The position numbers and the translations under genes were made by a program. A DNA stretch of 64,000 bases from an uncultured Clostridia bacterium (GTDB taxonomy: Bacteria > Bacillota > Clostridia > Christensenellales > UBA3700): NCBI GenBank assembly GCA_947246685.1, contig CAMXSN010000006.1, positions 3,898-67,897 on the forward strand, given 5' to 3'. A model generated the notes under the pieces. The model saw only the letters and a list, made by a program, of their open reading frames with translations. It did no database searches and had not been told where the DNA came from. Of this stretch, positions 18,920-61,092 are shown piece after piece (within the stretch, counting starts at the first letter, position 1; the number at the start of each line of letters is the position of its first letter).

Positions 18920-20347
18920 TCAAACTTCGTCGGCAGGCAACTCTTCCGAATTAGCGGACTGCTCTTTTGCAATAGCTCTGCGTTTATCGAGTTCTTCTTT
19001 GATAAACGCGAACCTCTCTCTGCTCAAATTCGCACGTCTCGAAAAAATTATCGAAACAAGGAATATCAATCCCGGCAGAACGCCAAGCACGATTCTTACG
19101 GCAAGCAAAGCGCCGTCAGGCTGGCGTATCACGCTGCCGTCCATGCTCTCCACGTATCCGAATGCACCGAGCACAGCCGATACGAGAGCTATGGAAATTC
19201 CGTTGGCGACCTTGTACATAAACTGCGTTATACCGTAATACGCGCCCTCTCTTCTCGAGCCGTTGACGTATTCGTCCACTTCGACTACGTCTGGCACGCT
19301 GGCGTACGGCAAAATCTGTATTGCGGACATTCCAAAGCCTGCGAAAACGCATAGAAGCACCGTACTCCAAACGATTTTTGCGGGCACGAATATCGCAAAC
19401 ACTAGCACAAAAGCCATATATGCGCACGCAAAAGTATAAACTTTGTGCTTGTTGAATTTTTCGCTCAATTTTACCCAAACGAACGACGACGCGATCGCGC
19501 ATACTAGAGGTATGGCGACAAACGCCATAGCCATAGCCCCGCCGCCAAATCCCAAAGAATCGTTGATGAAAAACATAAATACCGCCATTATTATATCGAA
19601 TCCTATCATACTAAGCAAATAACACAGCATTACGTTTCTAAATTCCGGCAATTTGAAAAACTCTTTGAGCGTAAGAAAAAATCCCTTGTCGTTGAGCTCG
19701 TTGTCGTCAACTCTTTCTTTGACGTTTGCGGCGCAAAGCAACATTATGACAATAGATATAAACGCAAACACACCGGCCGATAGCAGATATGCCTTCCTTG
19801 AACTGCCCAGCAACTGATAAAACAGGCTCTCCTGTCCGTCTGCAAACAACGCAAAAAGCGCCGCGCCCATAATTATACCGACGTTGGCAAGCGCGATTCT
19901 TATTCCGTTGAGAGAAGTGCGCTCGTCGTAATTGCCAGTCATATTGGCAGTTATCGCGTTATAGGGTATGTATACGACCGTCCATGCCGTATTGAAGAGC
20001 ATATAAGCCAGCGTATAATAAATCATCTTGCCGATTTGCGCTCCGTCGCCGAAAGGCGCAAGCCACAGCAGGATAAACGCCAATCCGTACGGCGCCGCGC
20101 CAAACAGCATATAGACTCTGCGCTTACCCCACTTGCTCTTAGTCTTGTCGGATATTCTGCCCATAAAATAATCCGTGAGCGCGTCCCAAAACTTGGCAAT
20201 CAAAAATACAGCCGAAGCCAACTCGGCTTTAAGCCCTCCCACGTTGACAAAAAAATAAAGCAGATAAAAAGAGATCGCCGCAAACATAATGTTGGCGGAC
20301 AAATCTCCTAATCCGTAAAAAAACTTTTCTTTGAATTTCAATTTCAT
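18920..20347 (-). CDS. GPH-family sugar:cation symporter (MelB/YicJ-like)
   Basis: Start MKLKFKEKFFYGLGD at 20347. GRISDKTKSKWGKRRVYML is the GPH signature loop. About 12 TM spans. It begins 35 nt after the AAA+ stop with no intervening terminator. Confidence 0.8.
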   Translation of the reverse strand: MKLKFKEKFFYGLGDLSANIMFAAISFYLLYFFVNVGGLKAELASAVFLIAKFWDALTDYFMGRISDKTKSKWGKRRVYMLFGAAPYGLAFILLWLAPFGDGAQIGKMIYYTLAYMLFNTAWTVVYIPYNAITANMTGNYDERTSLNGIRIALANVGIIMGAALFALFADGQESLFYQLLGSSRKAYLLSAGVFAFISIVIMLLCAANVKERVDDNELNDKGFFLTLKEFFKLPEFRNVMLCYLLSMIGFDIIMAVFMFFINDSLGFGGGAMAMAFVAIPLVCAIASSFVWVKLSEKFNKHKVYTFACAYMAFVLVFAIFVPAKIVWSTVLLCVFAGFGMSAIQILPYASVPDVVEVDEYVNGSRREGAYYGITQFMYKVANGISIALVSAVLGAFGYVESMDGSVIRQPDGALLAVRIVLGVLPGLIFLVSIIFSRRANLSRERFAFIKEELDKRRAIAKEQSANSEELPADEV

Positions 20348-20382
20348 AATTTCACTTCCGTGCATGCCAAGCGCTGACGCTA

Positions 20383-21537
20383 TCAATGCGTGTTGCGAAA
20401 ATTCTCGTAATCATCGAGCAACTCCGCGCTGATACTCGGCGGAATCTTGTTGAACGCTTTTTCAAACATATCCGCTCTGAGAGGGATAGGACTAGAGCTT
20501 CCGCTTTGCTGAATTTCTTCGAGAGCGCATCTGCAGGCTTCCTCCACTATTCCGCATATATCTGCGGCAGAATAATACGCCGTCGTGCGGATATTGCCCT
20601 TCTTATCTTGTTCCGCCGTGAACGTCTCGGTCATATCTACGATCTCTTCCACCGTGATATCTTCTAATTCTATACCGCTGAGTTTGCTCTCTATGATAGC
20701 TTTTTTCGCGCCGAAATCGGGAGGCGTGACGTGTATCAAATGAGAAAATCTCTTATATCTGAGATAAGCGGGATCTATCACGTCGGGACGGTTGGTCGCC
20801 GCGACCATTATTCTCTTGGAACCGTCCACGCCGAATCCGTTGATTCTCTGCAGAAGTTCGGTCGTAACGGCAGCCTTGTAATCTTTGGTATCCTGTGTAC
20901 GTTTGCTGAAAATAGATTCGCATTCGTCAACAAACAGTATCGCGCCGTCGGGACATGCGTCGATTTCTTCGAATATCTGTTTGACTGCCTGCTCGGATTC
21001 GCCGACATAGGACTTGAAGATATCGGCGGGCGTAACGATGAACAACGGTAATTTCATTGCGTTGGCGATAGCCTCGGCAAACATTGTCTTACCCGTACCG
21101 GGCGCGCCGTACATAAGCATACCCAGACCGCCTTCTATCTTGTAATATTCGAGTATCGACGGATTCTGCGCCATAAATATAAAACTTCTGACCAATGCTT
21201 TGACGTTGTCCAAACCCTTGACGTCGTCGAGAGTTGTATCGGGCACTTTGCTCTTGATGACCGAGCCGTAACCTGCCGCCGCGTCGCTGAGCTGCTTGTA
21301 AAACAACTTGTATTTCTCGCTCAGCAATCTGTCTGTGCTTCTCACGGAAAGCGTGCGCGCAATTTGCGCCGCCTGAGAATATTTGGCGCGCAATACGTTG
21401 CGTTCCTCGTCGGACAGATCTTTTTTATCCTTCCTGCCGTTTAGGACGGAACGTATCTCGTCTGTGACTTTGCGGAGCGAGTTTTCCAACTCTTCCACGC
21501 CGCTGTCTTCGGTATTTCTTTTTTTATCCGCTGCCAT
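20383..21537 (-). CDS. classical-clade AAA+ ATPase with helical N-domain (Vps4/katanin-like single cassette)
   Basis: Walker A GAPGTGKT, pore loop KSYVGES, Walker B ILFVDECE and sensor-1 VAATNRPD. SRH IDPAYLRYKRFSHLIHVTPPD has no Pro-Gly and so resembles the Vps4 RRRFE type. The ~120-aa charged helical N-terminus precedes the LDDVKGLDNVK linker. RBS GAGGAG. Confidence 0.85.
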   Translation of the reverse strand: MAADKKRNTEDSGVEELENSLRKVTDEIRSVLNGRKDKKDLSDEERNVLRAKYSQAAQIARTLSVRSTDRLLSEKYKLFYKQLSDAAAGYGSVIKSKVPDTTLDDVKGLDNVKALVRSFIFMAQNPSILEYYKIEGGLGMLMYGAPGTGKTMFAEAIANAMKLPLFIVTPADIFKSYVGESEQAVKQIFEEIDACPDGAILFVDECESIFSKRTQDTKDYKAAVTTELLQRINGFGVDGSKRIMVAATNRPDVIDPAYLRYKRFSHLIHVTPPDFGAKKAIIESKLSGIELEDITVEEIVDMTETFTAEQDKKGNIRTTAYYSAADICGIVEEACRCALEEIQQSGSSSPIPLRADMFEKAFNKIPPSISAELLDDYENFRNTH

Positions 21538-21547
21538 TGTCGTCTCC

Positions 21548-22267
21548 TCAGATTATGTCGTCTATATTGATATCCCCGTCGGAACCCTTGTCCGCGCCCG
21601 TATCGGGAGCCGCGGAAGGAGCGGCGGACGAATCTTCTGCAGTTTCCCCGTTCGCCTCTGCGCGGTATTTCGCAAGCTGCTTGGAAGCCTCGTTCTGATA
21701 GCCTGCCATGACGTCGTTGCTTTTCCCGTCCGATTTTGCCATTGACTTTTTGAGCTTTTTATCGAATCCGCTCATTGCCACCAACATAGCGTTGGCAATA
21801 TTGCCGTATCCGTTGACCATATCCATAATGGCTTTCATACGGTTACTGTTCATCTTGACGAATTTTTTGATCTTGCGTCTCTGTTTCATCCTGCCTCTTG
21901 CAGAATACTGCTTGTAATTGTCAAGGCTCATCATCTCGTCGATGAATTTGAACGTATCGTCCATTATGTTGATTGTCTGCGACAGCACCTGCATTGCCTC
22001 TTTCATGGAAAACATCATTCCCACGACGTTCTGCAAGCTGAAAGTAACTGTGTAAAACATCGTCAGCACTCTGGTGTTGAAATGATCGGCGCCGTATTGA
22101 CGCTCGCTCTCAACGACTTTGCGCGCCAGATTTTCCACGGATTTCTCCAATTCGGATTTCTTACCCTCTAAAATCTTACCGTCGAGTTTTCTGAGATTTT
22201 CTTTTTGCATTTCGCTGTATGGATTGGAGAGCCTTTCTCCTCTCTCTCTGTTTCTTTCTCTTGCCAT
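21548..22267 (-). CDS. 239-aa helical protein with basic N-terminus and acidic disordered C-tail ending DGDINIDDII (ESCRT-III/PspA-like architecture, unproven)
   Basis: RBS GGGAGAA. N-terminus MARERNRERGER, long predicted helices, then Ala/Pro/Asp-rich tail SSAAPSAAPDTGADKGSDGDINIDDII. No sequence motif I can assign to a family. Confidence 0.7.
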   Translation of the reverse strand: MARERNRERGERLSNPYSEMQKENLRKLDGKILEGKKSELEKSVENLARKVVESERQYGADHFNTRVLTMFYTVTFSLQNVVGMMFSMKEAMQVLSQTINIMDDTFKFIDEMMSLDNYKQYSARGRMKQRRKIKKFVKMNSNRMKAIMDMVNGYGNIANAMLVAMSGFDKKLKKSMAKSDGKSNDVMAGYQNEASKQLAKYRAEANGETAEDSSAAPSAAPDTGADKGSDGDINIDDII

Positions 22268-22282
22268 AATTTTTTCTCCCGA

Positions 22283-23797
22283 TTAAAACTGATTGTTGAT
22301 GATGTCATTTATCTGTATGTCGCCGTCCGCCTCTTCTAAATCTTCAGACTGCTCTTGCTTATCCGCCGCGTCTTCTTTGGGGGCGGAAGTCTTTCTTGCA
22401 AATTTACGGCGTCTTTCTTCCATTCTCTTTCTCATCTCTTCTTTTTCTTTTGCTCTGTCCTCGCTCTGCTTGTTTGCAGTTACGTATGTTTGCTCTTTCT
22501 CCATAAGTTTGTTGATAGTTGCAAACCGCTCGTCGGTCATAGCCATGTGTTTTGTCTGCAGAGCAACGTTTTCCATAATATTGTCATAATAACTTATAGC
22601 GAGCGTAATATCCGACTCGGACGCGCCGTAACTCAATATATCAAGAAACTGCCTGAAATCTATATATGCGAACATAGAATAAAACAAGTTGGGTTCTATC
22701 TGCTGATACATAGTGTAGATATGTTGCAATCTCTTGAATTTGGAGAGCAGTCTGCGCATAGCGAGCATATTATTGTTCATCATATTGATACTAGCCCTAT
22801 ATTGCTCTCTTTCCATCTCTCTGATTTCCATATCCTGTTCGAGCATGGTGATTTGAGTATCCGCTTCTTCTTCCATTATTTCGCCTTCGTCGAGAGCCGC
22901 TATTACGTCGGATATATTCTTCTGAATTTCCGCGATATCGGCGTTGATCTGTTTGACTTTCTCGTATGCGTCGTTCTGTACGCTGAACTGCTCTTCAAAT
23001 GATGCCAATCTTGCAAAGAACGCGTCGCCTTTTTCTTTGACGCTCGCAATCTTTGAGAATCCCGAGAATACGTCTTCCTGATATTTGACGATATCTTTAT
23101 CCTTTGCCTGATTTCTCTTATTGACCGCCTTGGTCAGTTCGCACCATTTGTCAGCCTCGTCCAGAGCCTGTCTGAGATGGTCGTTGACGGCGTCGAATAT
23201 CATATTCCTGCCTACGTAATCTCTCCACGCGAACAGACCGTAGGAGCTGTCGCCGAGCAAATTTGCGGCGGCGTCCGCAGCGTCCAACGACGAATTGTCA
23301 AACACGCCGTCAACTTTCTCTCTCAATTCTTTGAGCATATCTTTGGACGCGATAAGAATGCCTTTCTTGTATTCGCTCTTTTCCTCGTAAATCACGTTGT
23401 CTATTCCCATCATAGAATCGTCGATATATTTCAATACTTCTTTCTTGATGTCTGCCATATTCTTTTCTCCTTTTCCCAATTTTATCTTTTTGAAAATCTG
23501 TTCTTTTTTTTCTCTGTATCCGTCAAGTTTCAGCGCCGCGTTGTATTTTGAGAGCAGCGTAGCCATTTCCGTCAGCTCGAAAATAGCGTTTTTGAGATTG
23601 CCGTCGAATCCCTTGTTGATCCCTTCTCGCAAAAGCGACTCGATATCTTCTCTTATTTCGTCGGAAAAATCTTGACAGCGATTGCTGTCGTAACCGTTGT
23701 ATTCTATATCCTTAAACTTTCTTGCGTAACTTATTTTGTTGTCTTCGAGTATACCGACAAGCTTATCCAGCCTTATCAATTCTTCTCCTCCTCGCAT
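22283..23797 (-). CDS. 504-aa coiled-coil protein with acidic C-tail ending DGDIQINDIINNQF
   Basis: All-helical, charge-rich sequence. The likely true start is TTG 23779, preceded by GAGGAGGAG and overlapping the upstream TGA as TTGA. The ATG at 23797 is the track start. Confidence 0.7.
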   Translation of the reverse strand: MRGGEELIRLDKLVGILEDNKISYARKFKDIEYNGYDSNRCQDFSDEIREDIESLLREGINKGFDGNLKNAIFELTEMATLLSKYNAALKLDGYREKKEQIFKKIKLGKGEKNMADIKKEVLKYIDDSMMGIDNVIYEEKSEYKKGILIASKDMLKELREKVDGVFDNSSLDAADAAANLLGDSSYGLFAWRDYVGRNMIFDAVNDHLRQALDEADKWCELTKAVNKRNQAKDKDIVKYQEDVFSGFSKIASVKEKGDAFFARLASFEEQFSVQNDAYEKVKQINADIAEIQKNISDVIAALDEGEIMEEEADTQITMLEQDMEIREMEREQYRASINMMNNNMLAMRRLLSKFKRLQHIYTMYQQIEPNLFYSMFAYIDFRQFLDILSYGASESDITLAISYYDNIMENVALQTKHMAMTDERFATINKLMEKEQTYVTANKQSEDRAKEKEEMRKRMEERRRKFARKTSAPKEDAADKQEQSEDLEEADGDIQINDIINNQF

Positions 23798-24924
23798 ACG
23801 TCGGAGACGAATTTATCCGTCTCTTTTTTGGACGTTCTGCCTTTCTCCGAATATTTATAAAAATCGTCGTCGTAAAAAACGCACGAATTGTATCTGCCCG
23901 CTTTTATAAGCCGCTTAATATCCGCGTTGCCGTTGTCTTCCAAGCATTTGGCTATGCCGGCAATGGTTCTTTTTTTGAGATATTTATGTCCGCCGCGCGC
24001 ATTTACGAAACACATATAAACTCCGCTGTCGGGACAGTCGCTCACGTACTGCGCCACGGCGTTGGAATTCTTAAGCTCGTAAAATTTGCCGTCGATCTCT
24101 TTGTCGTCGTATGCTTTTGCCATTTTAAGACGCAGATCTCTGCCTATGCTTTCAAGCACGGAAAAGCCGTTGTCCTCCTCGGAAAACAGACGCACGCACT
24201 CTTCTTTTGAAAGTTTGAAAATGCCGAAAACAGGAGCGCGCTCCTCGTCCGTACAACTGCGCAATGTGGCAAAAGCCACGCTTGCCGCGTCCTCGTCCTC
24301 CGCCCGTTCGCCGTATAACAGATCAAATTTATCGTAATCTCCTCCGAGATCCGTTATCTTCTCTGCCAAAGCCGCGCGCAGTTCGTCAAGACTCTCATAT
24401 CCGTCGAATTGTCTCTTGACAGCGATCTCGCGCGGAACGTTTTTTAACATATCTATCAAATATCCTGCGCACTGCAGTTTGATATCCGTCAGTTCGTCGA
24501 CGTAACGGTCGTCTCCTTCGGGAGTGTGCACGCCTCTATGAACGTTGAAAAGCACGGCTTTGTAATAAAAATACGCCACGCGCCATCTCTCGGCGCTGCC
24601 CGTATTGAAATCCACGTAGCCCCTGTCATAGTAATACCCCATACGCATAAGCGCTGAAGGATGAAACATAAACGCCGCTTCATAACACAGATTGACCGCT
24701 TTATCGAGATATTTGAATCTCGTCCTCTTGTCTTCGTTGGAAGACGTGAGCCATTTGAAATAATATTCCTCGGAGCGAACGAACAGCTCTCTGTTGAGCG
24801 CATTGATCTCCAGCTCCGTGTCCGTATCGGGGAATACGTCCTTTTTGCAATGCGGACAGCACCACCTGCCGTCATACAGCTCGAGCGGTCTGTCTATATC
24901 TTGATTGCAATTTCCGCATTTCAT
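23776..24924 (-). CDS. 382-aa protein with N-terminal Zn-ribbon, one Sel1/TPR-like repeat and an unknown C-terminal domain
   Basis: RBS AAGGAG. MKCGNCNQ...CCPHCKK is a four-Cys ribbon. AAFMFHPSALMRMGYYYDRGYVDFNTGSAERWRVAYFYYKAV fits the Sel1 repeat pattern. Confidence 0.65.
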   Translation of the reverse strand: MKCGNCNQDIDRPLELYDGRWCCPHCKKDVFPDTDTELEINALNRELFVRSEEYYFKWLTSSNEDKRTRFKYLDKAVNLCYEAAFMFHPSALMRMGYYYDRGYVDFNTGSAERWRVAYFYYKAVLFNVHRGVHTPEGDDRYVDELTDIKLQCAGYLIDMLKNVPREIAVKRQFDGYESLDELRAALAEKITDLGGDYDKFDLLYGERAEDEDAASVAFATLRSCTDEERAPVFGIFKLSKEECVRLFSEEDNGFSVLESIGRDLRLKMAKAYDDKEIDGKFYELKNSNAVAQYVSDCPDSGVYMCFVNARGGHKYLKKRTIAGIAKCLEDNGNADIKRLIKAGRYNSCVFYDDDFYKYSEKGRTSKKETDKFVSDVCEEEKN

Positions 24925-24938
24925 ACTGTTATCTCCTT

Positions 24939-27900
24939 TTAAGACGCCTTTCGCTCGATCTTGAAATCAATAAGCGTGTTTGTGAATTCATAATTAACCG
25001 ACGATACCGATGCCGAGACCGAATAATTGCCTACCGCGGTCGGCGCGCTCGCAAGCAGCCTGCCCTTGGAATCGTAATACGCATATCCGTTTAACTTGAT
25101 ATCCGAAGAATACTCTTTGCCGTCCTTGACTATCGTAGGAATGCCGGACGCGGTGTTCCACTGCAACGCGACGCTCTTTTTATTGATGATAAAATCGCAC
25201 GATTCATATTTAACGTCATAATTATTTATTACGCCGCTCTCTGGCAAGCTCAATGTGAGAGTGTATTTGCCGGCGTTTTTAGCGCTTATCGCACTGCCGC
25301 CGTATATAGGCGTCCCGAAATCTTCTTTCTTATCCTTTGTTGCAAGACCGCTCAACGTAAAGCCGAAATTGCCGCCGGTCTTGCCGTCGTAAGTCTTTGC
25401 CGACGCAACGGCTTTCGCCACAAGAGTACGTTTGGTTATCTCAAAATCCTTGGAGTCGTCGCCGATAAGTTGATAATTATCCGCATAAACGCCGCCCAAA
25501 GCGACCTGCGCCGTATACTTGCCGACGTTGAGTTGGGCGGAAGTATACTTCAGCGAAGAGATCATTGCCGTTTGCTGATTTGCAACCGCGTTTGTTATAG
25601 AGGACACTCTTGCGTTGTGATTCTGACCGTCGTAAACAAACTTGGAGTATTTCTCGTCCCATACAACTCGTACTTGGCGTTTAACTATCGAATAGGACGT
25701 TTCAACGGGCGCGTCAAGTCTGTAATTGCCATCAATAGGAAGATCCGCGCCGACGGTATAGCCGTCTCCGACGTTGACGTTGTTTTCATACCCGTAATAA
25801 TCTATCGGCACGGGCTTATCTCTGTCCAGCGCGCCTATTACCATCAAGTCGGGGTGCTGCGCGACGCCGGCGTAAACCAATTGAACGTTCTCCGCCCATT
25901 TTGCCGTCACGGTAGCCCTTTCGATGACGTAATCGCAGTTGCGATTGACGATCGTATAATTGCCGTTTGCGGTGCTGACTCTAGCGACGTAAGCGCCTGC
26001 GTCAATACCGGCGCCCGTCACGTCGGTTTGAATTTGACCGTCTTTTGCTATACCTGTTACGGTAGCGTTAGGCGCCTTGTAACTTCCGTCGTATACGAAT
26101 TGAGTATTAGACCACACCGCCTCAACTTCTATGGGAAGTATCTCGTAGGCAAAACTTCCCCCCGAGCCTATTTTGTAACAGTCTGCTCCGACCGTAAGTT
26201 CTATATTCGCCGTGTATCTGCCGGCATCGGAATTGATATGATTGGATATAGCGTATTCGATACCGTCGCCTTCAATCAACTGCGACGTATCGTAATCTAC
26301 GTAAACTTCTTTATTCTCGCCGTCGTATACGTCCTGATCAAAATCCGTCCAGACAAAATCCAAAGCCTTTTTATCAACCGACACGTCTATGACGAAAGTC
26401 TCTTGCGAACTGAGAGAGGTTTCTTCGGAAGTCGCTACGACTATGACGGAAAACGCTCCGCTCATGCTCGGAAGAACTCTGTCGTATATCATTTGAGCGC
26501 CGCTCTGCATAAACGCGTCTTTGCAATACCATGAATACGACAAATCATATCCCGACTTAGGCGCCTTTGCCGCCGCCGACAGAATCAACGTATCGCCGTA
26601 AACGTACTTCTCTGCGTTGGGCGTAATTTTGCCGTCATAAGGTTTTTTCAGCGTCCATTCCGGTTCGACTGCCGTCGCGTTGTAATATCCGTTCGCATTG
26701 CGTCTGAGGTAATCGGCGAGACTTGAAAATTCGTTGACGCCGCATTTCCATTTGATATCGAATCCATCTCTCGACAAATCTTTGAGGAGCTCGTCCGCGC
26801 GGCTGAGAGCCGTCAATCTGTAATTGCGTATACTGCCGCCTGCCTCTATCGTCTTGATCGAATCGTCAAAACTGAACTTGGTATCGTTGCCGTCGCCTAT
26901 CTCCACGGCGAAAACTCTCTCGAAATTAACTTGGGCTTTAACGACGTTGTTAACTATGCTTACGCCTTGCAGATTTCCTTGAGACGTGACTATTTCTTTG
27001 AGCATATAGCCGTTGTTTTGATAATTCCAATACAAATCTTCGTCGTCGGACTTATCAGAATATTTTACGTAATCGACTTTGTCGCCGCAGAACGACAAAT
27101 CAAACTTATTGCCTTTTTTGCCTATCCACGTGGGAATATAGCTGTTGTCGGTCAATATCAAATCGTCTGCGTTGTAGGCAAACGTAACGTACGCTTCGTC
27201 GTCGGCAAGCCCCGTAGGATAAACGTTGTTTGCCAATACCACGCTCTGTCTTTCCGAATATAATTCCTGTCTGTAACTGTCGATGAGCTTTTTGTTTACG
27301 CCCAATTTCAACGTGTCGTTCAACTCGCCTAAATAATATTTCTCGTCGTACAGACGCATCCTTTTTTCTCCGACTATTTCGACGCTGGCTATGGATGCGT
27401 CGGCAAACAGAGCGTAACTGACAGCCGTTACGTCCTTGCCGTTGAAAGTTAGAGGTACGCGCACCTTATCGCTTCTGCCCTCGAGCACTCCGTCGGCAAA
27501 ATACGAATCGCTGGCTTGGTCGTATTTGAAAGCCAAACTCCTGTATTCGTCTACGTAACCCTGTCCGAGAAAACCGTAATCCATTATATATACCGAATAC
27601 GCTCCCGATATCGCCACCGTTAACGCGCTCATGGCTATAACGGTCGCTTTGACCCACGGTTTTTTCTTGAGTATCGGATAAAGCGCCGCTATCGTAACGG
27701 CAACAAAACTGACCGCATGCGCAACTGCGAACAAAGCCGTCGCCGCGCCTGTCGAATAGGTCAGCTCCCCGCCGCTCATAACTCCCAACGTAGAACACGC
27801 GAATATAAACGTCAAAGCAAGATAAACTATCCACACCGTGAGCGAATATCTAAAACGGAAATTGGTAAACACTATGCCCACGATAAACAAAGCGTCAAAG

Positions 27901-28097
27901 ATCAGATTGAACACTGGCAGCACGATAAAACGCGCGTCGAAGCCCGATACAGCACACACTATCAGCAACACGAGGTCGCACACCGCCGCGGTAATGGAAG
28001 CGATGAGCAAAAATAGCTTGCTGCCGCCGAACCGCTTGCGGTTGGCGGAAGAATAATCTATATTTTCGCTGCCTGAATATAAGCCGTTTCTATTCAT
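24939..28097 (-). CDS. 1052-aa polytopic membrane protein with a large extracytoplasmic region ending in six MBG/YDG-type repeats
   Basis: RBS AAGGAGG and an ATGA overlap with the upstream gene. Five hydrophobic helices lie in aa ~29-170. The last 477 aa form six ~75-85-aa repeats, each with xVxW...(V/T)YDG...G(K/R)Y...NY...(F/Y)xIxK. Confidence 0.75.
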   Translation of the reverse strand: MNRNGLYSGSENIDYSSANRKRFGGSKLFLLIASITAAVCDLVLLIVCAVSGFDARFIVLPVFNLIFDALFIVGIVFTNFRFRYSLTVWIVYLALTFIFACSTLGVMSGGELTYSTGAATALFAVAHAVSFVAVTIAALYPILKKKPWVKATVIAMSALTVAISGAYSVYIMDYGFLGQGYVDEYRSLAFKYDQASDSYFADGVLEGRSDKVRVPLTFNGKDVTAVSYALFADASIASVEIVGEKRMRLYDEKYYLGELNDTLKLGVNKKLIDSYRQELYSERQSVVLANNVYPTGLADDEAYVTFAYNADDLILTDNSYIPTWIGKKGNKFDLSFCGDKVDYVKYSDKSDDEDLYWNYQNNGYMLKEIVTSQGNLQGVSIVNNVVKAQVNFERVFAVEIGDGNDTKFSFDDSIKTIEAGGSIRNYRLTALSRADELLKDLSRDGFDIKWKCGVNEFSSLADYLRRNANGYYNATAVEPEWTLKKPYDGKITPNAEKYVYGDTLILSAAAKAPKSGYDLSYSWYCKDAFMQSGAQMIYDRVLPSMSGAFSVIVVATSEETSLSSQETFVIDVSVDKKALDFVWTDFDQDVYDGENKEVYVDYDTSQLIEGDGIEYAISNHINSDAGRYTANIELTVGADCYKIGSGGSFAYEILPIEVEAVWSNTQFVYDGSYKAPNATVTGIAKDGQIQTDVTGAGIDAGAYVARVSTANGNYTIVNRNCDYVIERATVTAKWAENVQLVYAGVAQHPDLMVIGALDRDKPVPIDYYGYENNVNVGDGYTVGADLPIDGNYRLDAPVETSYSIVKRQVRVVWDEKYSKFVYDGQNHNARVSSITNAVANQQTAMISSLKYTSAQLNVGKYTAQVALGGVYADNYQLIGDDSKDFEITKRTLVAKAVASAKTYDGKTGGNFGFTLSGLATKDKKEDFGTPIYGGSAISAKNAGKYTLTLSLPESGVINNYDVKYESCDFIINKKSVALQWNTASGIPTIVKDGKEYSSDIKLNGYAYYDSKGRLLASAPTAVGNYSVSASVSSVNYEFTNTLIDFKIERKAS

Positions 28098-29752
28098 TTC
28101 GCTGCCTCCTTGTCGGAATTGCCCTTAGGCGCGCTGAGATAACCGCTGCTCTTGGCGGTATCTTTATTAAATATAAGCACAGATTCGTCGATCATAAACA
28201 TAATGCAATCTTCGTCTTCCTTGCAATATTTCTTTTTGTTGAGACTGCCTATTCTCTTGACCAAAGACAGCATTCCCGAATATTTGCGATATAGCTTATT
28301 ACCCTGTTTGTATTCCGCGTCGTCTATCGCGTCTATGCCCAATTTGGTTATTTTGCAGAAATCGCAAACGTAATCGGTCGAATTAGTTTCGGAGTAAAAC
28401 GATCTTCCGCAACATGAACAACGCGCAATTTTATCTTTAGGCACCAACGTCATTCTGTCTCTGACAAAGGCAAGATTCTTAGTATATCTAGCTATTCCGT
28501 CTTCGCAGACGTATACGACCTCGGGATGCGGACAGCGTTTGCATTTTCTCACTCCGCCGTCAAGCACGGCAGTATCGTCCTCGCAAACGTATTTGACGCA
28601 TCTGCCGGCAAGTCTCGCGTTCTCCGAGCAACTAATCCTGAGCAAGTGCGAAGTAAACGTTCCGCCGGATTTTATCTGTCTTATTATCTCTTCGCTAAGA
28701 CCGAGCCCTTGATGGGCAGGATTTATCAACGCTGTTTTCTCTACTCCGTCAAATACGTATTTGATCTTATTGAACTCGATAAGAGTAGATTTTTTGCGGC
28801 AGCTGTTGCAATAAAGACTCAACCTGCCTCCTATGCCCAATATCGCTTTGAGCGCGACCTTGCCGTCTAGTCTTACGTCGTAGTTATCTTTTCTCCACTG
28901 AAAATGCAGGACGTTGAGAAGAGACAGATTTAGGCACGTCAAATCAACGTTGTCGTTGGGTCCCTTCTCCACCATAATTCCCACGGCGTTCTCGTCTCTG
29001 CCGTCGGCTAACACGACGTAATCCGACAAATCCGCTCCTTGAGAATTACCGTCGGGATATACGAGTTTGTCCAAAGCATTGACGACGGTATCGGTAAGTT
29101 CCGCGCTGTTTTGCATAAGTTCATCTTCTTCCCTTTCCGAATCGAACGTGGAAAGATACGAGTTGATGACTTCGGCTTCTTCCTTGCCGTAAGGAAGTAT
29201 TTTTTTACCTACTTTTCTAAAAAACACTTTGCCTAGCACCGGCACCGCTTCGCCCGTTCCGTCGGTGATCTCCAACCTCAACGAGGCTCCGTAAACGTCT
29301 TCCAAACTCTCCGACTCGTCGCCGCGTCTAATATCGAATACGTAATTATCAAAGAAGCTCGATAGCACGTTGTTTATCAGCGCACAATGACTTTCTATCA
29401 ACTCGTTGGATATTACGTGCCTTCTGGGGCTGTATTCGACGATAGAATAATTGCGGTGAAAATGTTCCTTGACCGACTCGACGAACATAAGCCATTCGGC
29501 GGTGTCGTTTTTGACGCTCTCGCCTCTGAACATTCCAAACCATGACGCCCCGTTGTCGCCCATTACCGCATTGAACGAACCGTCGTCGCGCGCAGCCGCG
29601 CCGCGAGCCAATATAAATTCATGCGAGGGAGTAACTATCCTGTCTGCGTCCGCCGACAAAACCGATCCTTCTTTTATGCAATTTTCGCGGTACAATTTCA
29701 CCACGCTGTCAAACGTCTTGCCGTATTCGCTTCCAATATAAATCTTAGCCAT
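28094..29752 (-). CDS. 552-aa hypothetical protein with several CxxC Zn-ribbon-like pairs in the C-terminal half
   Basis: RBS GGAGGCGGT. CNSCRKK, CKRCPHPE and CSCCGRSF...CDFC. No other recognisable motif. Confidence 0.65.
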   Translation of the reverse strand: MAKIYIGSEYGKTFDSVVKLYRENCIKEGSVLSADADRIVTPSHEFILARGAAARDDGSFNAVMGDNGASWFGMFRGESVKNDTAEWLMFVESVKEHFHRNYSIVEYSPRRHVISNELIESHCALINNVLSSFFDNYVFDIRRGDESESLEDVYGASLRLEITDGTGEAVPVLGKVFFRKVGKKILPYGKEEAEVINSYLSTFDSEREEDELMQNSAELTDTVVNALDKLVYPDGNSQGADLSDYVVLADGRDENAVGIMVEKGPNDNVDLTCLNLSLLNVLHFQWRKDNYDVRLDGKVALKAILGIGGRLSLYCNSCRKKSTLIEFNKIKYVFDGVEKTALINPAHQGLGLSEEIIRQIKSGGTFTSHLLRISCSENARLAGRCVKYVCEDDTAVLDGGVRKCKRCPHPEVVYVCEDGIARYTKNLAFVRDRMTLVPKDKIARCSCCGRSFYSETNSTDYVCDFCKITKLGIDAIDDAEYKQGNKLYRKYSGMLSLVKRIGSLNKKKYCKEDEDCIMFMIDESVLIFNKDTAKSSGYLSAPKGNSDKEAAK

Positions 29753-29763
29753 ACCGCCTCCGC

Positions 29764-32571
29764 TCAGTTATCCATGGACAGAATTTCTTTTATATCCGCC
29801 ACTTTGTCAGATTCTTTCCTTAGATTGTTGCAGAAAGACTCGCCGTTGTCGTGTTTGAAATCCCACGACGCCTTGATATACGCCGCAAACGTCCTTGCAA
29901 TCACGGGATATAGATAACCTCTTTCGTGATTTTGTTCGCACTTGGGACAACGCGCAATCCATTTCTCGTCAAACGATATTACGTGAGGTCTGGGAGAACA
30001 CTGCGAATAATCGCACGATCCGCACAGTTCAACGCTGGCTTTACCTACGCCGTACCTGCACTTCTGCGGACATGACGAACGGCTGGAACAGCTTGCGCAC
30101 AGACTCTTGAGTTCAACTGCGGAAATATTGCGATTGAGCGCATAAGCGTTGAGCACGCTGCACTTACCTTTGAGCTCGCTCTTGAATCTCTGACAGTGCA
30201 ACATCGAGCATATCTTGGAACAGTAATAATCTCTGTCGCCTTTATCTCCGCTGCTGCACAGCGATCCTCTGTCCGTATCCGTCTTGGATATACACGTGTA
30301 TCCGCCGTCGCCCACGCTTCTGCCGAATACCGAACCGCACGTGCCGCACTTGAATTCGTACACGTTTATCTCTTCCATAACCGTGCCTCGGGGATCATCC
30401 TGAATACACTGCCTTTTTGCTATACAGAAAAGATTGTTTTTCTTCTTGCGCGCATCGTATTCTTCTTTTGTATAAAGCGCCACTTTGCCGCAAGCGGGAC
30501 ATCTGAGCGCAACCATACGCTCGTTGTTACTGCCCGCGATAATCGTCGCGTCGCCGCTGTTGCTGGAAAGCAATCCTATACTGTTGAAGTACGCAAGAGC
30601 AAAACCTTCGAGCTTATTCATATCTGCAAACGAATATATCTTGACGTCGCTAGACTGTCCGAGACGGAATATTCTGCCTATTCTCTGATCCATAGACAAC
30701 GGATCGGGCGTGACCTGGAAGTTGATGATGATTCTGCTGTCCTGCAAGTTTACGCCCTCGGTAAACGACGGGTCGGTAACGAGTAACACCGCGTCTTCTT
30801 TGGATGTAAATTCGTCTATAACCTGTCTTTTGTTATCGTCTCTGCCTATTAATATCCTTGATGAAAATTCGCCGTCCGCGGCAAGTTCCGCACCGACTTT
30901 TTCCCATTGACGGTACCCTTTGCTTGTCTTGGGCAAGTCGTAATCGAAAAATACCAACGCTCTCTCGCCCGGATGTTCGCGCAGAACGGATTTCATCTCC
31001 TCGAATTTATACGCAAACGTATCTTTATCAGCCGCGGTGAAGATAAATTTGTTGTCGCATTCTCCCGCGGCTTTTCTTGAGAATTGCTCCCAATAAAATT
31101 TAAGCGAATTTTTCTTTTCAAAAACTTTTTCGTCCCCGAAAGATTTTAGTCCGCCCAAAATGTTGGGCACCAATATCTCAGCATATTTCTCCTGAGCGTC
31201 GCCGTGCAAGGAAATTTCCTGCGCATAGTCTTTCAGCGAATATGCTCTGCCGTCGACGTTGAGCGCTCGATTCCCGTTGATTACGTCCAGACTTGCTTCC
31301 ATGTCGCAACCGTCTCCGTATTTGAACCTTATTATCTTAGGAGCGTTTTCTTTGACAGGGAAGAAATATCTGTTGAAAACGAATCTGGTCTTGGTAAGTT
31401 CGTTGGGCTGACGGATCATTATGGTGCGCAACACGCCGTTGTGATAAGCGCTCGCTACTCTTTTGAGCACCTCGGAGCGTATTGGACCGCTGTCTTTAAG
31501 AAACTCTTCTCTTAGCAATTGTTTTTCGCCCTGAGTATAAGATTGAAATTTCTCGTATTCTCCCTTTGCTTTCAAAAAAGCTTCAAACTGAGCTGAGTAA
31601 TTGTTGTCTACTTCAAACTTCTTAACCGCGGTGATAAACTCTGCCACGGTATTCGCGCCTCTGCACACGTTCTGCTTGTAATAGAGTTTCTCTTTTCTGT
31701 ATTCGTCAGTGCGCTCTTTATCCTCTTTTATATCGAAATCGTCGGGATTGCCGCCCTTACATCTGATAAAATACCACAGTCTGAACATCTTTTCCAGATT
31801 GCCGGAATGAGGCGTAGCGGAAAGAAGCACGCAGTAAGTGCTGTTGGCTTTTTTCTTTGTCTGCATAAGCAAAGACAGTAGTTTCATAGCCTTTGCATAT
31901 CTGCCTTCTTCCGCGCACAGATGATGAGCCTCGTCGACGACAACGACGTCGAATAACACGTTTTTAATCGCGCTTTCTCGCCAGTTGACGAAATCCTCCG
32001 CCTTGACGATAAACGGCTTTGTCGGTCTGACGGTCGCTCCGTCCGACAAAGTCTCGCACTCGCCGAACTCCGCGTCGGCGACTCCGACAAGCACGCCTTT
32101 GCCCAGTCCGAATTTATTTTCAAGCACGTCTATCCAGCTGTCGTAAACCTGCGACGGCACGACCAACAACAGCGATTTCATCTTACCTCTGACGGCAAGC
32201 TCGCTCAGCACTGCGCACGCCTCAAAAGTTTTGCCGCTGCCCACAACGTCCGCGAGCAGACCGAAGCCGCGCAGCTCCTTGAGAAAATGCGTCGCCGCAA
32301 GTTGCTGATGTCTCAATATTACCTGATTGCTGTTGACGCTCCTATGCACATGCGATTTGGTTATTCCGTAATCTCCGCCGTCGGATTCGTATACTTCCGG
32401 CGCTATTTTCAACGCGGCGAAATCGTCGTATCTGTCCAGTTCTTCGGCGCAGTGGGTAAGCTCGGCTATCCGCGCGTCGAAGGGGCGTATCTCACCTGCA
32501 ATCTTCGACCTCTGAATATCCCTGTCAAAAGCTCCGTCCGTACATTTAAGAGTAAATCTTTTCTTTTTCAT
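29764..32571 (-). CDS. SNF2-family (RapA/HepA-like) helicase/translocase with ~200-aa Cys-rich C-terminal module
   Basis: Start ATG 32571, 5 nt after GGAGGGG; the track start 32589 is a TTG. Motifs LLADVVGSGKTFEA (I), VVVDEAHH (II), LLSATPHSG (III), TEGVNLQ and QRIGRIFRLGQ (VI). The tail holds about 21 Cys, including CPAC, CGTC, CASC, CGSC and CPKC. Confidence 0.85.
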   Translation of the reverse strand: MKKKRFTLKCTDGAFDRDIQRSKIAGEIRPFDARIAELTHCAEELDRYDDFAALKIAPEVYESDGGDYGITKSHVHRSVNSNQVILRHQQLAATHFLKELRGFGLLADVVGSGKTFEACAVLSELAVRGKMKSLLLVVPSQVYDSWIDVLENKFGLGKGVLVGVADAEFGECETLSDGATVRPTKPFIVKAEDFVNWRESAIKNVLFDVVVVDEAHHLCAEEGRYAKAMKLLSLLMQTKKKANSTYCVLLSATPHSGNLEKMFRLWYFIRCKGGNPDDFDIKEDKERTDEYRKEKLYYKQNVCRGANTVAEFITAVKKFEVDNNYSAQFEAFLKAKGEYEKFQSYTQGEKQLLREEFLKDSGPIRSEVLKRVASAYHNGVLRTIMIRQPNELTKTRFVFNRYFFPVKENAPKIIRFKYGDGCDMEASLDVINGNRALNVDGRAYSLKDYAQEISLHGDAQEKYAEILVPNILGGLKSFGDEKVFEKKNSLKFYWEQFSRKAAGECDNKFIFTAADKDTFAYKFEEMKSVLREHPGERALVFFDYDLPKTSKGYRQWEKVGAELAADGEFSSRILIGRDDNKRQVIDEFTSKEDAVLLVTDPSFTEGVNLQDSRIIINFQVTPDPLSMDQRIGRIFRLGQSSDVKIYSFADMNKLEGFALAYFNSIGLLSSNSGDATIIAGSNNERMVALRCPACGKVALYTKEEYDARKKKNNLFCIAKRQCIQDDPRGTVMEEINVYEFKCGTCGSVFGRSVGDGGYTCISKTDTDRGSLCSSGDKGDRDYYCSKICSMLHCQRFKSELKGKCSVLNAYALNRNISAVELKSLCASCSSRSSCPQKCRYGVGKASVELCGSCDYSQCSPRPHVISFDEKWIARCPKCEQNHERGYLYPVIARTFAAYIKASWDFKHDNGESFCNNLRKESDKVADIKEILSMDN

Positions 32572-32585
32572 TATCCCCTCCGCCG

Positions 32586-34538
32586 TCAATCGGCTCCTTC
32601 CACGTCGAATTCCTCGACGCCTTGGAATTGAAGAACTATGTCTTTGTATCTGGCAAACTTAACGTTTGTCGGGTCGTCGGCTTTTCTTACGGCTATGGTG
32701 TCGTAAGCTCCGTTCTTGGATACGTTGTTGCGTATGAAAGGCTGCGCTCTGCCGTCTCCGTCGATCTTAACTCCCTCAAGGAAGTATAACACGCCTTTTA
32801 TCTGCACCGGTATGGGCGATTTTTTGCCTTCTTTGCAATAATAAAACAGTATCTTGCCTTTGCTCTTACCGCCCGACACCACTCGCAGACCTATCTTCGT
32901 CTGCATCTTCACGCGCTGTTCGGAGTCAGGTTCGCCTATCACGTATACTCCCGACGATTCCGTCGTAGAGAAAATCTCCTCATTGTCTACCGACCCCGAC
33001 CATCTGTCCATATATTTGAGGCTGGATTCGGTATAATACGTTCCTCCGTCGGGAGGAAGTATCTGACCTCTTTTGAGGAAAATGTCCAGTATCTTATAGT
33101 ATTTATCTCCGCGCTTGCGATATTGCCAAGTACCGTAAGACAATGCTACCGCCGTCTTGATCTCGTAATTATTGAGCGCAACGATAGCGCCGCCTACCGC
33201 GGGCGCAAACAAAGAATCTTCGTATGAAAGTATCCTGAATCCGTCGTCTCTGTTCTCGTAATCGTCAAACGTGACGACGTCGACGTTCAATCCCGCTTTG
33301 CGTAGTTTGGAGCGCAGATAACCTATCAGCCCGTAGGTCTCCGTAACTCCTCCCGACAAGAGAAGTTTGTCCACGTCTTTATTGATACTTCTGTTCAACT
33401 CCTCGATAATATAATCCGCTATCTTAGCCGCCACGCCGCAATCGCCGTCGATACCCACCGCCTTGCAAAAGTCATCTCTCGTCAACATTCTCTGCACCGT
33501 CACGTCTCTATAGAGCGATATAGGCGCTCCGTCTGGAAACACGTTGTCGTAAGTTGCGTCGGGAAGAGACAGCGCCGTCTTGACCTTTTTGATCTCGGTC
33601 ATAAACAAAAACTGTTTAGAATGCAATCCCCGCTCGGCGATATATCCGTCTTCTCCCGACGGCGGCGCGCCCGGAGTCTCTCTCGCCCCGATGCTGTCTT
33701 CTATATAATCTCTTAACGCAATGTCAAAATCGTTGCCGCCTATCTCCATAGGCTCGTTGTGACCGTCAACGCCGTCCACAAGCACGCTCTTGACCTTTCC
33801 GCCCGAAAGACTGAGTTTTGCAACGGAAATATCCTCTTCGCCCATATCGACGATAATAACGCCCTCTCCGCCGTCCAAAATACCTCTGTGAAATGCAAAA
33901 AGTCCCAGCGCTCTCGTAGATGACATTACCTTCTTAACATTAGAGCCGACCGAACGCTCTACCAAACGCGTCAACTCCTCTATGTATTCCGCGCCCGCTT
34001 TGGCAGGATAAATCAGCGAATAATCGACGCTGTCGAATGCTAGATTTCTCTGCGCTTGCAATCTCTCTATCGCAGGCAAAACAGTCTTAGAAAATAGATA
34101 ATCAAAAAACTCTTCGCACACCTGCATCGGCGTCCTGTCTGCGCAAAAAGTCATGTCGAGATCTTTGGCAAGCATCAGATTTTCGGAAATCTTGCGTTTT
34201 GTCGGAAAATAAAATTTGGGGAAATCTCTGCCTTCTCGATAACATACGCGATTGCTATCGCATACGGCTTTATCCGATCTTTTCAGAAGCAAAGACAGCA
34301 GCGTTTTGATCTTGACGACAGTAATAAAAGGTCTGTCGGTGCCTTTATACGCTTCGTCTCCGAACAGCCATCTGCCGTTGTCCTCGTCGTAATACGCTAT
34401 CGCCGACACGACCGCGCTGCCCGTGACTTCCCTGGGCGCCAACTTTCCGTATACCGCCTTATTGGATTCTTTATAGGCAAAAGCAACCTTTACTTTGTCG
34501 CTGCCGACGTCGATTGCAACCTCTAAATTACCTTGCAT
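32586..34538 (-). CDS. divergent Hsp70-like (actin-fold) ATPase with beta-rich C-terminal domain, no lid
   Basis: RBS AAAGGAG. Motifs AIDVGSDKVKVAF (phosphate-1), IIVDMGEEDISV (phosphate-2), EIGGNDFD, LLLSGGVTETYGL and PAVGGAIVA. The C-terminal ~190 aa resemble an SBD-beta (TAVALSYGTW...ILPP...). No EEVD. Confidence 0.8.
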   Translation of the reverse strand: MQGNLEVAIDVGSDKVKVAFAYKESNKAVYGKLAPREVTGSAVVSAIAYYDEDNGRWLFGDEAYKGTDRPFITVVKIKTLLSLLLKRSDKAVCDSNRVCYREGRDFPKFYFPTKRKISENLMLAKDLDMTFCADRTPMQVCEEFFDYLFSKTVLPAIERLQAQRNLAFDSVDYSLIYPAKAGAEYIEELTRLVERSVGSNVKKVMSSTRALGLFAFHRGILDGGEGVIIVDMGEEDISVAKLSLSGGKVKSVLVDGVDGHNEPMEIGGNDFDIALRDYIEDSIGARETPGAPPSGEDGYIAERGLHSKQFLFMTEIKKVKTALSLPDATYDNVFPDGAPISLYRDVTVQRMLTRDDFCKAVGIDGDCGVAAKIADYIIEELNRSINKDVDKLLLSGGVTETYGLIGYLRSKLRKAGLNVDVVTFDDYENRDDGFRILSYEDSLFAPAVGGAIVALNNYEIKTAVALSYGTWQYRKRGDKYYKILDIFLKRGQILPPDGGTYYTESSLKYMDRWSGSVDNEEIFSTTESSGVYVIGEPDSEQRVKMQTKIGLRVVSGGKSKGKILFYYCKEGKKSPIPVQIKGVLYFLEGVKIDGDGRAQPFIRNNVSKNGAYDTIAVRKADDPTNVKFARYKDIVLQFQGVEEFDVEGAD

Positions 34539-34600: not shown

Positions 34601-34629
34601 AGTATAGCACACGCTCATAAGGTTTTCAA
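34601..34629 (-). promoter_or_regulatory. strong sigma-A-type promoter of the nine-gene operon
   Basis: Minus strand reads TTGAAA - 17 nt - TATACT with a TG at the extended -10 position (GTGTGCTATACT). It lies ~60 nt upstream of the Hsp70-like ATG. Confidence 0.65.
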
Positions 34630-34730
34630 TACTATTTATTATATTATTTATACAAAGGCGTTGTAGATTTTACAAAAATATTTTACAATTTTGGCATAGA
34701 CTATTCTAATATTATCTAAGAAATTAAGGA

Positions 34731-61018: not shown

Positions 61019-61092
61019 TGGAGCAGGTGACGGGAATCGGACCCGCGCTGGCGGCTTGGGAAGCCGCTGTTCTGCCATTGAACTACACCTGC
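61019..61092 (-). tRNA. tRNA-Gly (anticodon CCC), CCA encoded
   Basis: Hand-folded 74-nt cloverleaf. The 7-bp acceptor GCAGGTG/CACCTGC is followed by the D arm GTTC-AATGGCA-GAAC. The anticodon arm is GCGGC-TTCCCAA-GCCGC and the T arm is GCGGG-TCCGATT-CCCGT. The 3' end is the discriminator T plus CCA. Confidence 0.9.

Follow-up and report, generated by a model that had tools for sequence, protein, structure and literature searches.

Does a bacterium of the Christensenellales encode a pair of proteins of the ESCRT-III/Vps4 type? The question is raised by a stretch of 64,000 nucleotides from an uncultured Clostridia bacterium (GenBank assembly GCA_947246685.1, contig CAMXSN010000006.1, positions 3,898 to 67,897; hereafter the window), in which a gene for a 239-amino-acid all-helical protein (21548..22267, minus strand; hereafter the target) directly precedes a gene for an AAA+ ATPase. 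A first-pass annotation of the window had read these two genes as an ESCRT-III/PspA-like protein with an adjacent Vps4-like ATPase, and thus as a possible bacterial ESCRT-III/Vps4-type pair. Such a pair, if genuine, would be notable, as a 2025 review finds a Vps4-like ATPase to be apparently absent from bacterial ESCRT-III systems (PMC7619361). Our analysis supports the pair but not this identity, as neither partner is assignable to those families. We propose instead, with moderate confidence, that the target is a dedicated client, or adaptor, of the downstream ATPase, and that it represents an uncharacterised all-helical family.

The gene pair and its helical member

A gene of the target family followed by a gene for an AAA+ protein of about 385 amino acids was found in all 12 independent neighbourhoods examined, only contigs extending far enough being counted. 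Ten of these were reached from members of the helical family, and there the ATPase gene lies immediately downstream, with a truncated, tail-less paralogue of the target interposed in one lineage. The other two were reached from relatives of the ATPase, and there the gene immediately upstream belongs to the target family (E = 1e-81 to 1e-84 against the hidden Markov model of alignment A2, which holds 110 family members at 16-32% identity), its product ending ...GDISDIL or ...NIDDIL. The adjacency holds across two operon architectures and several chromosomal locations, so that the earlier proposal of a pair is borne out starting from either gene. Across systems the ATPases are 60-80% identical, whereas their helical partners share 25-28%; a slowly evolving ATPase with a fast-evolving partner is what one would expect if the one were a constrained machine and the other its client.

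The helical family is compact and, in the sources that we looked up, none of its members bears a name beyond "hypothetical protein". A word-indexed search returned 34 close relatives of the target (at least 53% identity), and 1.84 billion cluster representatives, scanned exhaustively with HMMER, gave 160 matches at E<=1e-3, nearly all of them 220-265 amino acids long. This corresponds to about 160 clusters (50% identity level), none of them annotated and all from metagenomes (Christensenellales), the sources being uncultured Christensenellaceae and metagenome-assembled genomes of gut Clostridia. The window protein itself has no significant match in Pfam, NCBIfam, PADLOC or PDB sequences, and its sole match in PHROGs is marginal (phrog_34396, E = 4e-4, function unknown). 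When the 110 diverse members were scanned against Pfam, 141 families were hit, weakly and in a scattered manner; since none was consistent across the members, a TelA, phasin or apolipoprotein identity was rejected. A MotA/ExbB and ZorA signal was weak and was taken as noise (2 of the 110 members; PDB chain 8vvn_C at E = 1.5). A phage or plasmid origin was likewise rejected, as tblastn gave no match in 50,697 phage and 72,556 plasmid records, and within the 64-kilobase window neither a paralogue of the target nor a gene for PspA or ESCRT-III is present.

A real gene, and one under selection, occupies the open reading frame (ORF) at 21548-22267. It starts with ATG, carries a GGGAG Shine-Dalgarno-like site 9 nucleotides 5' of that start, and is separated by 15 nucleotides from the preceding gene (504 amino acids) and by 10 nucleotides from the following AAA+ gene. 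With the 110-member alignment, AlphaFold2 produced a model with a mean predicted local distance difference test score (pLDDT) of 76 and a predicted template-modelling score (pTM) of 0.63, whereas close homologues alone gave a poor one (pLDDT 56), with which Foldseek found nothing. In the better model, helices span residues 2-11, 16-58, 63-115, 123-175 and 186-205, with no regular structure thereafter; the pLDDT is 84-96 across residues 21-100, and averages 55-59 beyond residue 205.

The protein is thus built of three helices of about 45-55 residues, followed by a short one (alpha5) and a tail. The first two, alpha1 (residues 16-58) and alpha2 (63-115; together 21923..22222, minus strand), are joined by a conserved YG.DHFNT loop. 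The second is at once the most hydrophobic and the best conserved helix of the protein and is net acidic (family means: charge -6, Kyte-Doolittle hydropathy +0.43). A second conserved loop, NY..Y...GR, also lies between helices. The third long helix, alpha4 (residues 123-175; 21743..21901, minus strand), is strongly basic, with a charge of +13 in the window protein and a family mean of +10, and holds a near-invariant R143 within an N..NRMK motif. Much of this had been anticipated by the first-pass annotation, which had placed an ORF of about 240 codons here and described a long helical stretch with a hydrophobic helix (its segment corresponds to residues 65-104), then a basic helix and an acidic tail with a hydrophobic end. 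Its basic N-terminus (MARERNRERGER) is present in the window protein, but is not a trait of the family, whose mean charge there is -0.4, and is not amphipathic.

In the window protein the tail covers residues 206-239, is acidic (charge -8) and is made up of two parts. The first is a low-complexity linker (residues 206-231; 21575..21652, minus strand), which is predicted to be disordered, forms an unaligned block in the alignment of close homologues (A1), varies in length and is biased in composition across the family (G 18%, S 17%, A 14%, T 9%, P 9%). The second is the C-terminal tip, DINIDDII (residues 232-239; 21551..21574, minus strand), in which I235, D236, D237 and I238 are invariant among close relatives; the tip consensus is G-[D/G]-[I/V]-[D/S]-D-[I/L]-[L/V/I]-COOH. 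Of 131 full-length members, 103 have a phi-x-[D/G]-phi tip no more than 4 residues from the C-terminus, compared with 11% of shuffled sequences, and the terminal hydrophobic motif noted at first in a single protein is therefore a conserved feature. Outside a few core positions, it is the single element retained family-wide, and within these loci the motif is confined to the target family and its neighbour of about 500 amino acids. This tip is the kind of feature that an AAA+ protein or an adaptor would recognise, and we propose it as a docking peptide. A linker of biased composition and variable length that ends in a conserved tip is a classic layout for AAA+ engagement.

Kinship with ESCRT-III, PspA and Vps4

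Membership of the target family in the ESCRT-III/PspA superfamily is not supported, no homology being detectable. The earlier assignment had been made to depend on significant profile or structural similarity to that superfamily, and we found neither. Snf7 (PF03357) and PspA_IM30 (PF04012) do not match the window protein at E<=1, and neither is among the families that at least two of the 110 members hit at E<=0.1; as a control, 16 ESCRT-III/PspA reference sequences score 1e-13 to 1e-72. Family profiles built from A1 and A2 recovered no ESCRT-III, PspA or Vipp1 chain when the sequences of all PDB chains were searched at E<=10.

More sensitive comparisons were made with hhalign against small reference sets of 11 eukaryotic ESCRT-III and 6 PspA/Vipp1/LiaH sequences; 16 of these 17 were verified by Pfam hmmscan, and Escherichia coli PspA by 100% identity to a database PspA. 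An initial round with shallow references was discarded as underpowered, because its positive control reached only 8.9%. With the final references, the control (ESCRT-III against PspA) gave 85.7% and 62.5% (91.3% in global mode) over 127-179 collinear columns, whereas for the target family the values were 1.6% (ESCRT-III) and 0.2% (PspA), the baselines being 1.4-2.1% for the unrelated 504-amino-acid neighbour and 0.2-2.1% for reversed sequences. Against a merged ESCRT-III and PspA alignment the family rose to 8.7-10.8%, and the alignment was roughly collinear. We treat this as not significant: the score was 25.8, near to the 21.0 of the null, as against 44.9 for the control.

This collinearity is one of several observations that would fit a true, extremely divergent ESCRT-III/PspA member, polymerising on membranes and depolymerised by a Vps4-like ATPase. 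The helices predicted at 16-58 and 63-115, joined by a 4-residue loop, are similar in their limits to the hairpin of ESCRT-III alpha1 and alpha2/3; the hairpin for which the first-pass annotation had proposed to check an AlphaFold model is therefore there, at the level of secondary structure, although as a feature it is non-specific. The same applies to the other features that fit, namely the size and the disordered tail with its terminal motif; the adjacent classical AAA+ gene would also agree. Asgard ESCRT-IIIB (9ftm_F, E = 3.1, probability 0.20) and Vipp1 (8qbw, E = 5.1, probability 0.05) do occur among the Foldseek matches of the pLDDT-76 model. They are insignificant, however, and rank below unrelated helical bundles, the top PDB matches being three-helix bundles of the bMERB type and further generic helical proteins; nothing in PDB reached E<=0.001, with a method that is weak on extended helical proteins. 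A Foldseek search of viral structures gave only generic helical, tape-measure and tegument matches.

The charge distribution and the N-terminus point away from such a member as well. A basic N-terminal half and an acidic C-terminal half had been taken as an argument for ESCRT-III, and are indeed found in Snf7 (+9/-28), CHMP3 (+13/-21) and CHMP1B (+13/-12), but the asymmetry is reversed here (0/+6 in the window protein; family means -7.1/+11.5). Residues 2-11 are highly charged, with a hydrophobic moment of 0.28 as against 0.77 for shuffles, and N-termini are hydrophilic throughout the family; such a hydrophilic, non-amphipathic N-terminus bears no resemblance to the alpha0 membrane anchor. In length the third helix matches those of the hairpin, and the loops are conserved, features that suggest a fixed bundle. 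The tip (D-I-x-D-I-[ILV]-COOH) differs from the MIM1 and MIM2 consensus motifs. Adding to this the nature of the partner ATPase, described below, we regard divergent membership in the superfamily as very improbable.

The partner (20383..21537, minus strand) is a 384-amino-acid AAA+ protein of the classical clade (PF00004 at 3.9e-32) with an N-terminal domain of about 95 residues (21253-21537, minus strand) that reads as helical from its sequence. It has the Walker A motif GAPGTGKT, a Walker B DE (D204/E205), the pore loop KSYVG and the arginine region NRPD...LRYKRF; Walker A, Walker B, pore loop and arginine-finger region are all invariant in 12 orthologues. The ATPase thus carries every motif of a substrate-threading hexameric unfoldase. 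It is also unusually conserved, with more than 120 clusters (90% level) at 70% identity or more and 654 matches at E<=1e-30; named relatives include Candidatus Borkfalkia and Candidatus Coproplasma.

Its description as a Vps4-like ATPase held as far as the classical AAA+ class and the adjacency are concerned, but not for Vps4 in particular. Among its PDB relatives, VAT and p97-D2 (2e-59) come first, before Cdc48, NVL, AFG2, NSF (chains at 1.8e-53) and Rix7, and no Vps4 is found among the best 60 PDB matches. NCBIfam bit scores are 148.9 for CDC48, 133.6 for PAN and 129.7 for CdvC, all far under their cut-offs. BLASTP against yeast and human Vps4 gave 30% identity over 256 residues of the ATPase core only, with nothing aligned to the MIT domain and no beta-domain insertion. 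An MIT domain was not matched at E<=10 in the N-domains of five diverged orthologues, and the precomputed Pfam annotation of the 120 ATPase relatives listed contains none either. Vps4_C scores 19.4 bits (E = 1.1e-3, under the cut-off of 21.3), and p97-D2 aligns over the same C-terminal region. In PADLOC, the matches to IetA (1.5e-31) and TRIP13 (3e-16) are limited to the generic AAA core. As VAT and p97-D2 are nearest, MIT is not detected and the Vps4 alignment is confined to the core, the protein is, by these sequence comparisons, an unfoldase of the Cdc48-D2/PAN type, with a single ring and a novel N-domain, and not a Vps4 orthologue.

Bacterial precedents do not provide a closer identity. 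PspA/Vipp1 systems also link a bacterial helical protein genetically to an AAA+ protein, but the target lacks PspA_IM30 similarity, and PspF is a sigma54 activator and not a classical-clade unfoldase. Ravi et al. describe occasional bacterial neighbourhoods of PspA/Snf7 with AAA+ genes, as well as transfers of archaeal Vps4 to bacteria in which snf7 was displaced (PMC11237479). The present pair is neither case, as its helical protein is not PspA/Snf7 by any test made here and its ATPase is not Vps4.

The operon and its two architectures

A conserved system of 7-8 genes, one of them for a helicase, has the pair as its terminal module. In the window, this system is a unit of eight tightly packed, partly overlapping genes (20383-34538, minus strand) encoding, in order from 34538, a protein of 650 amino acids, a SNF2 helicase, a protein of 552 amino acids, an MBG-repeat protein, proteins of 382 and 504 amino acids, the target and the AAA+ ATPase. 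Family matches were obtained for the SNF2 helicase, the AAA+ ATPase and the MBG repeats only; the 650-, 552-, 382- and 504-amino-acid products have no match in Pfam, NCBIfam, PADLOC or PHROGs, and the first three have none in a PDB sequence search.

The first gene (32586..34538, minus strand) has promoter-like sites just upstream (34601-34667 in a promoter and terminator scan) and overlaps by 4 nucleotides the gene for the SNF2-family helicase (29764..32589, minus strand), a protein of 941 amino acids with SNF2-rel_dom and Helicase_C domains, a Cys-rich C-terminal region and BrxH/DrmD-like matches in PADLOC. The Cys-rich 552-amino-acid protein (28094..29752, minus strand) is found in this type of operon only. 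The next three are core components. The 1052-amino-acid protein (24939..28097, minus strand) has a hydrophobic N-terminal region and MBG-like repeats, recognised through MBG_2/MBG_3 matches in orthologues and through BLASTP to an orthologue in neighbourhood L008. The 382-amino-acid protein (23776..24924, minus strand) has an N-terminal CxxC...CxxC zinc-ribbon-like motif and corresponds to a protein of about 360 amino acids in the second operon type (hhalign 100%, BLASTP 1.7e-35), and the helical 504-amino-acid protein (22283..23797, minus strand) likewise corresponds there to one of about 500 (hhalign 99.7%). The latter has an acidic tail ending ...QINDII; it was considered as a paralogue of the target, and this was rejected (hhalign 1.5%). 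A tip-like ending of this sort (QINDII or GIDDIIF) occurs on the orthologues of the window and of L004, L006, L009 and L010 only, the protein of the second operon type ending ...LTDDDK.

That second type is the commoner one (L008, L027, L028, L029, L030, L031, L032 and, in part, L025). Its order is MBG-repeat protein, protein of about 360-384 amino acids, protein of about 500, a protein of about 640 unrelated to the 552-amino-acid one, a superfamily 1 (SF1) helicase of about 1510, target-family member and AAA+ ATPase. The SF1 helicase, encoded directly upstream of the target-family gene, has DUF4011 and an MTES_1575 nuclease domain, and matches PDC-S37 (5.7e-107) and Hhe (1e-48) in PADLOC. Five components thus make up the core, and the helicase can be exchanged (SNF2 or SF1-nuclease). 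With PADLOC 2.0 the components fit no single described defence system, the helicase matches (BrxH, DrmD, PDC-S37, Hhe) being drawn from different systems and the target and the 382-, 504-, 552-, 650- and 1052-amino-acid proteins having no significant match; nothing relevant emerged when the literature was searched for DUF4011, PDC-S37 and Hhe.

A different role for the target would be that of a nucleic-acid-associated scaffold, whose basic helix would bind DNA or RNA beside the helicase and whose tip would recruit the AAA+ ATPase or another subunit to remodel the nucleoprotein. The conservation of basic alpha4 and of R143 family-wide is consistent with this, as are the placement of the gene right behind that for the SF1 helicase-nuclease in the more frequent operon type and the zinc-ribbon proteins of the system. 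We nonetheless consider such a scaffold unlikely, as no nucleic-acid-binding domain was detected in the target, the basic helix could equally bind acidic lipids, its own acidic alpha2 or the tail, and the gene is separated from that of the helicase in the window operon.

The presence in the system of a membrane protein with extracellular repeats, together with helicase-nuclease partners resembling candidate defence genes (the PDC-S37 and Hhe matches), would also suit a membrane-active effector, in which alpha2 and basic alpha4 (+10 to +13) insert into or coat an anionic membrane, as a pore-former or depolariser of the abortive-infection type, and the AAA+ ATPase keeps it soluble or extracts it. 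The hydrophobicity of alpha2 (maximum 19-residue Kyte-Doolittle value 1.27 in the window protein, family mean 1.20) and its conservation speak for such a protein. In most members, however, the hydropathy stays under the usual transmembrane threshold of about 1.6, and alpha2 shows an amphipathic period of 3.4 residues, as a helix buried in a bundle would. A signal peptide is lacking, no known pore-former fold was matched, and the system is stably syntenic in some lineages. An effector of this kind seems to us improbable, somewhat more so than the scaffold.

The system occupies different chromosomal surroundings in different genomes. In Christensenellaceae it lies beside genes for a transporter of the MFS family and alanine racemase; in L029 (12209-19946) beside helix-turn-helix, E2-CBASS, ThiF (E1) and FtsK/SpoIIIE genes; and in L032 (11173-21161) beside dUTPase, RadA, IspDF and rpoB/rpoC. 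In the window it is followed by an MFS_2 sugar-transporter ORF (18920-20386, minus strand), whose listed TTG start overlaps the stop codon of the AAA+ gene, the ATG of MKLKF..., about 40 nucleotides downstream, probably being the true start. There is no convincing terminator between the two genes, so that read-through transcription is possible.

Elsewhere in the window, the segment 9386-13661 has a guanine plus cytosine (GC) fraction of about 0.35-0.39, as against 0.45-0.50 around it, and holds four minus-strand ORFs of 230, 458, 230 and 431 amino acids with no Pfam match at E<=1e-5. A tRNA-Gly(CCC) gene is found at 61019-61092, and from about 62000 to the end of the window (64000) the GC fraction falls to 0.27; this AT-rich end, which includes an ORF of 297 amino acids (62482-63375) with no Pfam match, may be foreign or hypervariable DNA.

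How the pair may work

Our preferred reading remains that of a dedicated client or adaptor and its ATPase. The tip of the target would dock on the helical N-domain of the ATPase, the flexible linker would then be fed into the pore, and ATP hydrolysis would unfold the helical protein or strip it from its assembly, whether this be an assembly with itself, with the helical partner of about 500 amino acids, with nucleic acid through the basic helix, or with a membrane. Such remodelling would recycle or reset the helical protein.

Similar arrangements are found in well-studied systems. Vps4 binds the tails of ESCRT-III proteins through MIT-MIM contacts and threads the disordered segment upstream, and it is plausible, by analogy, that the present pair works somewhat like ESCRT-III/Vps4 (CdvB/CdvC). 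Both combine a helical protein of about 240 amino acids, with a long alpha1-alpha2 and a disordered tail bearing a short conserved end motif, with a single-ring classical AAA+ ATPase that is encoded next door and has an N-terminal helical domain; the logic of tail docking, threading and disassembly is likely to be shared. They differ in that the target has no sequence, profile or fold similarity to ESCRT-III at a sensitivity that recovers the PspA-ESCRT-III link, has the opposite charge polarity and lacks a membrane-anchoring alpha0; the ATPase has neither a detectable MIT nor a beta-domain and is nearer to Cdc48-D2/PAN; and the pair is embedded in a helicase-containing operon.

TRIP13 (Pch2) remodels HORMA proteins in CBASS defence systems, a second case in which a small adaptor is remodelled by a dedicated AAA+ protein that engages a disordered terminus, as we propose for the target, and in which this regulatory module sits inside a multi-gene conflict system, as the present system may be. 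However, the target is all-helical and does not have the HORMA fold, no CBASS-type cyclase or effector is encoded in the operon, and the TRIP13/IetA matches of the ATPase do not go beyond the generic core. The pair would thus be mechanistically analogous to ESCRT-III/Vps4 and HORMA/TRIP13, and not detectably homologous to ESCRT-III/PspA.

The tail itself recalls the C-terminus of SSB (DDDIPF) and the C-terminal peptide of FtsZ, where a folded core, a flexible linker and an acidic-hydrophobic end that recruits partners follow one another. The linker and the acidic-hydrophobic tip are alike, but the core fold and the partners differ, the partner of the target being the one that we infer. With NSF/SNARE the pair would share the use of a Cdc48-clade AAA+ ATPase for disassembling long helical bundles; unlike that system it has a single AAA+ ring, no SNAP-like adaptor that we recognised, and no SNARE motif or transmembrane anchor.

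Several observations weigh against the docking of this client on this ATPase, or against the simplest form of it. In L004 (10790-11356) and L006 (10825-11391) a 188-amino-acid paralogue of the target (27% identity, E = 2e-22), which has neither linker nor tip, sits between the target and the AAA+ gene. The receptor of the tip could be another core component, such as the 382-amino-acid protein, and not the N-domain of the ATPase. Several Christensenellaceae proteins of about 500 amino acids end ...QIISTITKK, so that the sharing of the tip with this neighbour is not a universal rule. Finally, the system stands at a syntenic, housekeeping-like locus in some genomes, and beside E1/E2 and FtsK genes in another.

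The last point also bears on the role of the system as a whole. Nucleic-acid surveillance or defence is our leading guess, suggested because of the swappable helicase-nuclease and the PADLOC candidate matches; caution is called for because the ATPase is strongly conserved and some neighbourhoods are housekeeping-like. One might speculate further that the pair is an independently arisen bacterial analogue of ESCRT-III/Vps4 or SNARE/NSF, in which a bundle- or polymer-forming protein is recycled by its own highly conserved AAA+ ATPase by way of the tail with its linker and tip, and that it serves as the executing or resetting module of a new 7-8-gene Christensenellales system linking an extracellular-repeat membrane protein to a helicase of the SNF2 or SF1-nuclease kind; an anti-phage or DNA-surveillance machine triggered at the envelope would be one example. 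Taken as a whole, this picture seems to us unlikely.

For the present, the pair is best filed as a dedicated AAA+/client module with a tail-tip handle, belonging to an unannotated family and to an undescribed multi-gene system. The evidence against an ESCRT-III/Vps4 identity prevents a tempting mis-annotation. What it leaves is a compact orphan family with an obligate, unusually conserved AAA+ partner and a clear candidate docking peptide, which makes the pair a tractable model of how bacterial AAA+ unfoldases choose their clients. It is also an entry point to a helicase system, made mostly of proteins without a family, that is widespread in the Christensenellales, a gut lineage of interest for health.

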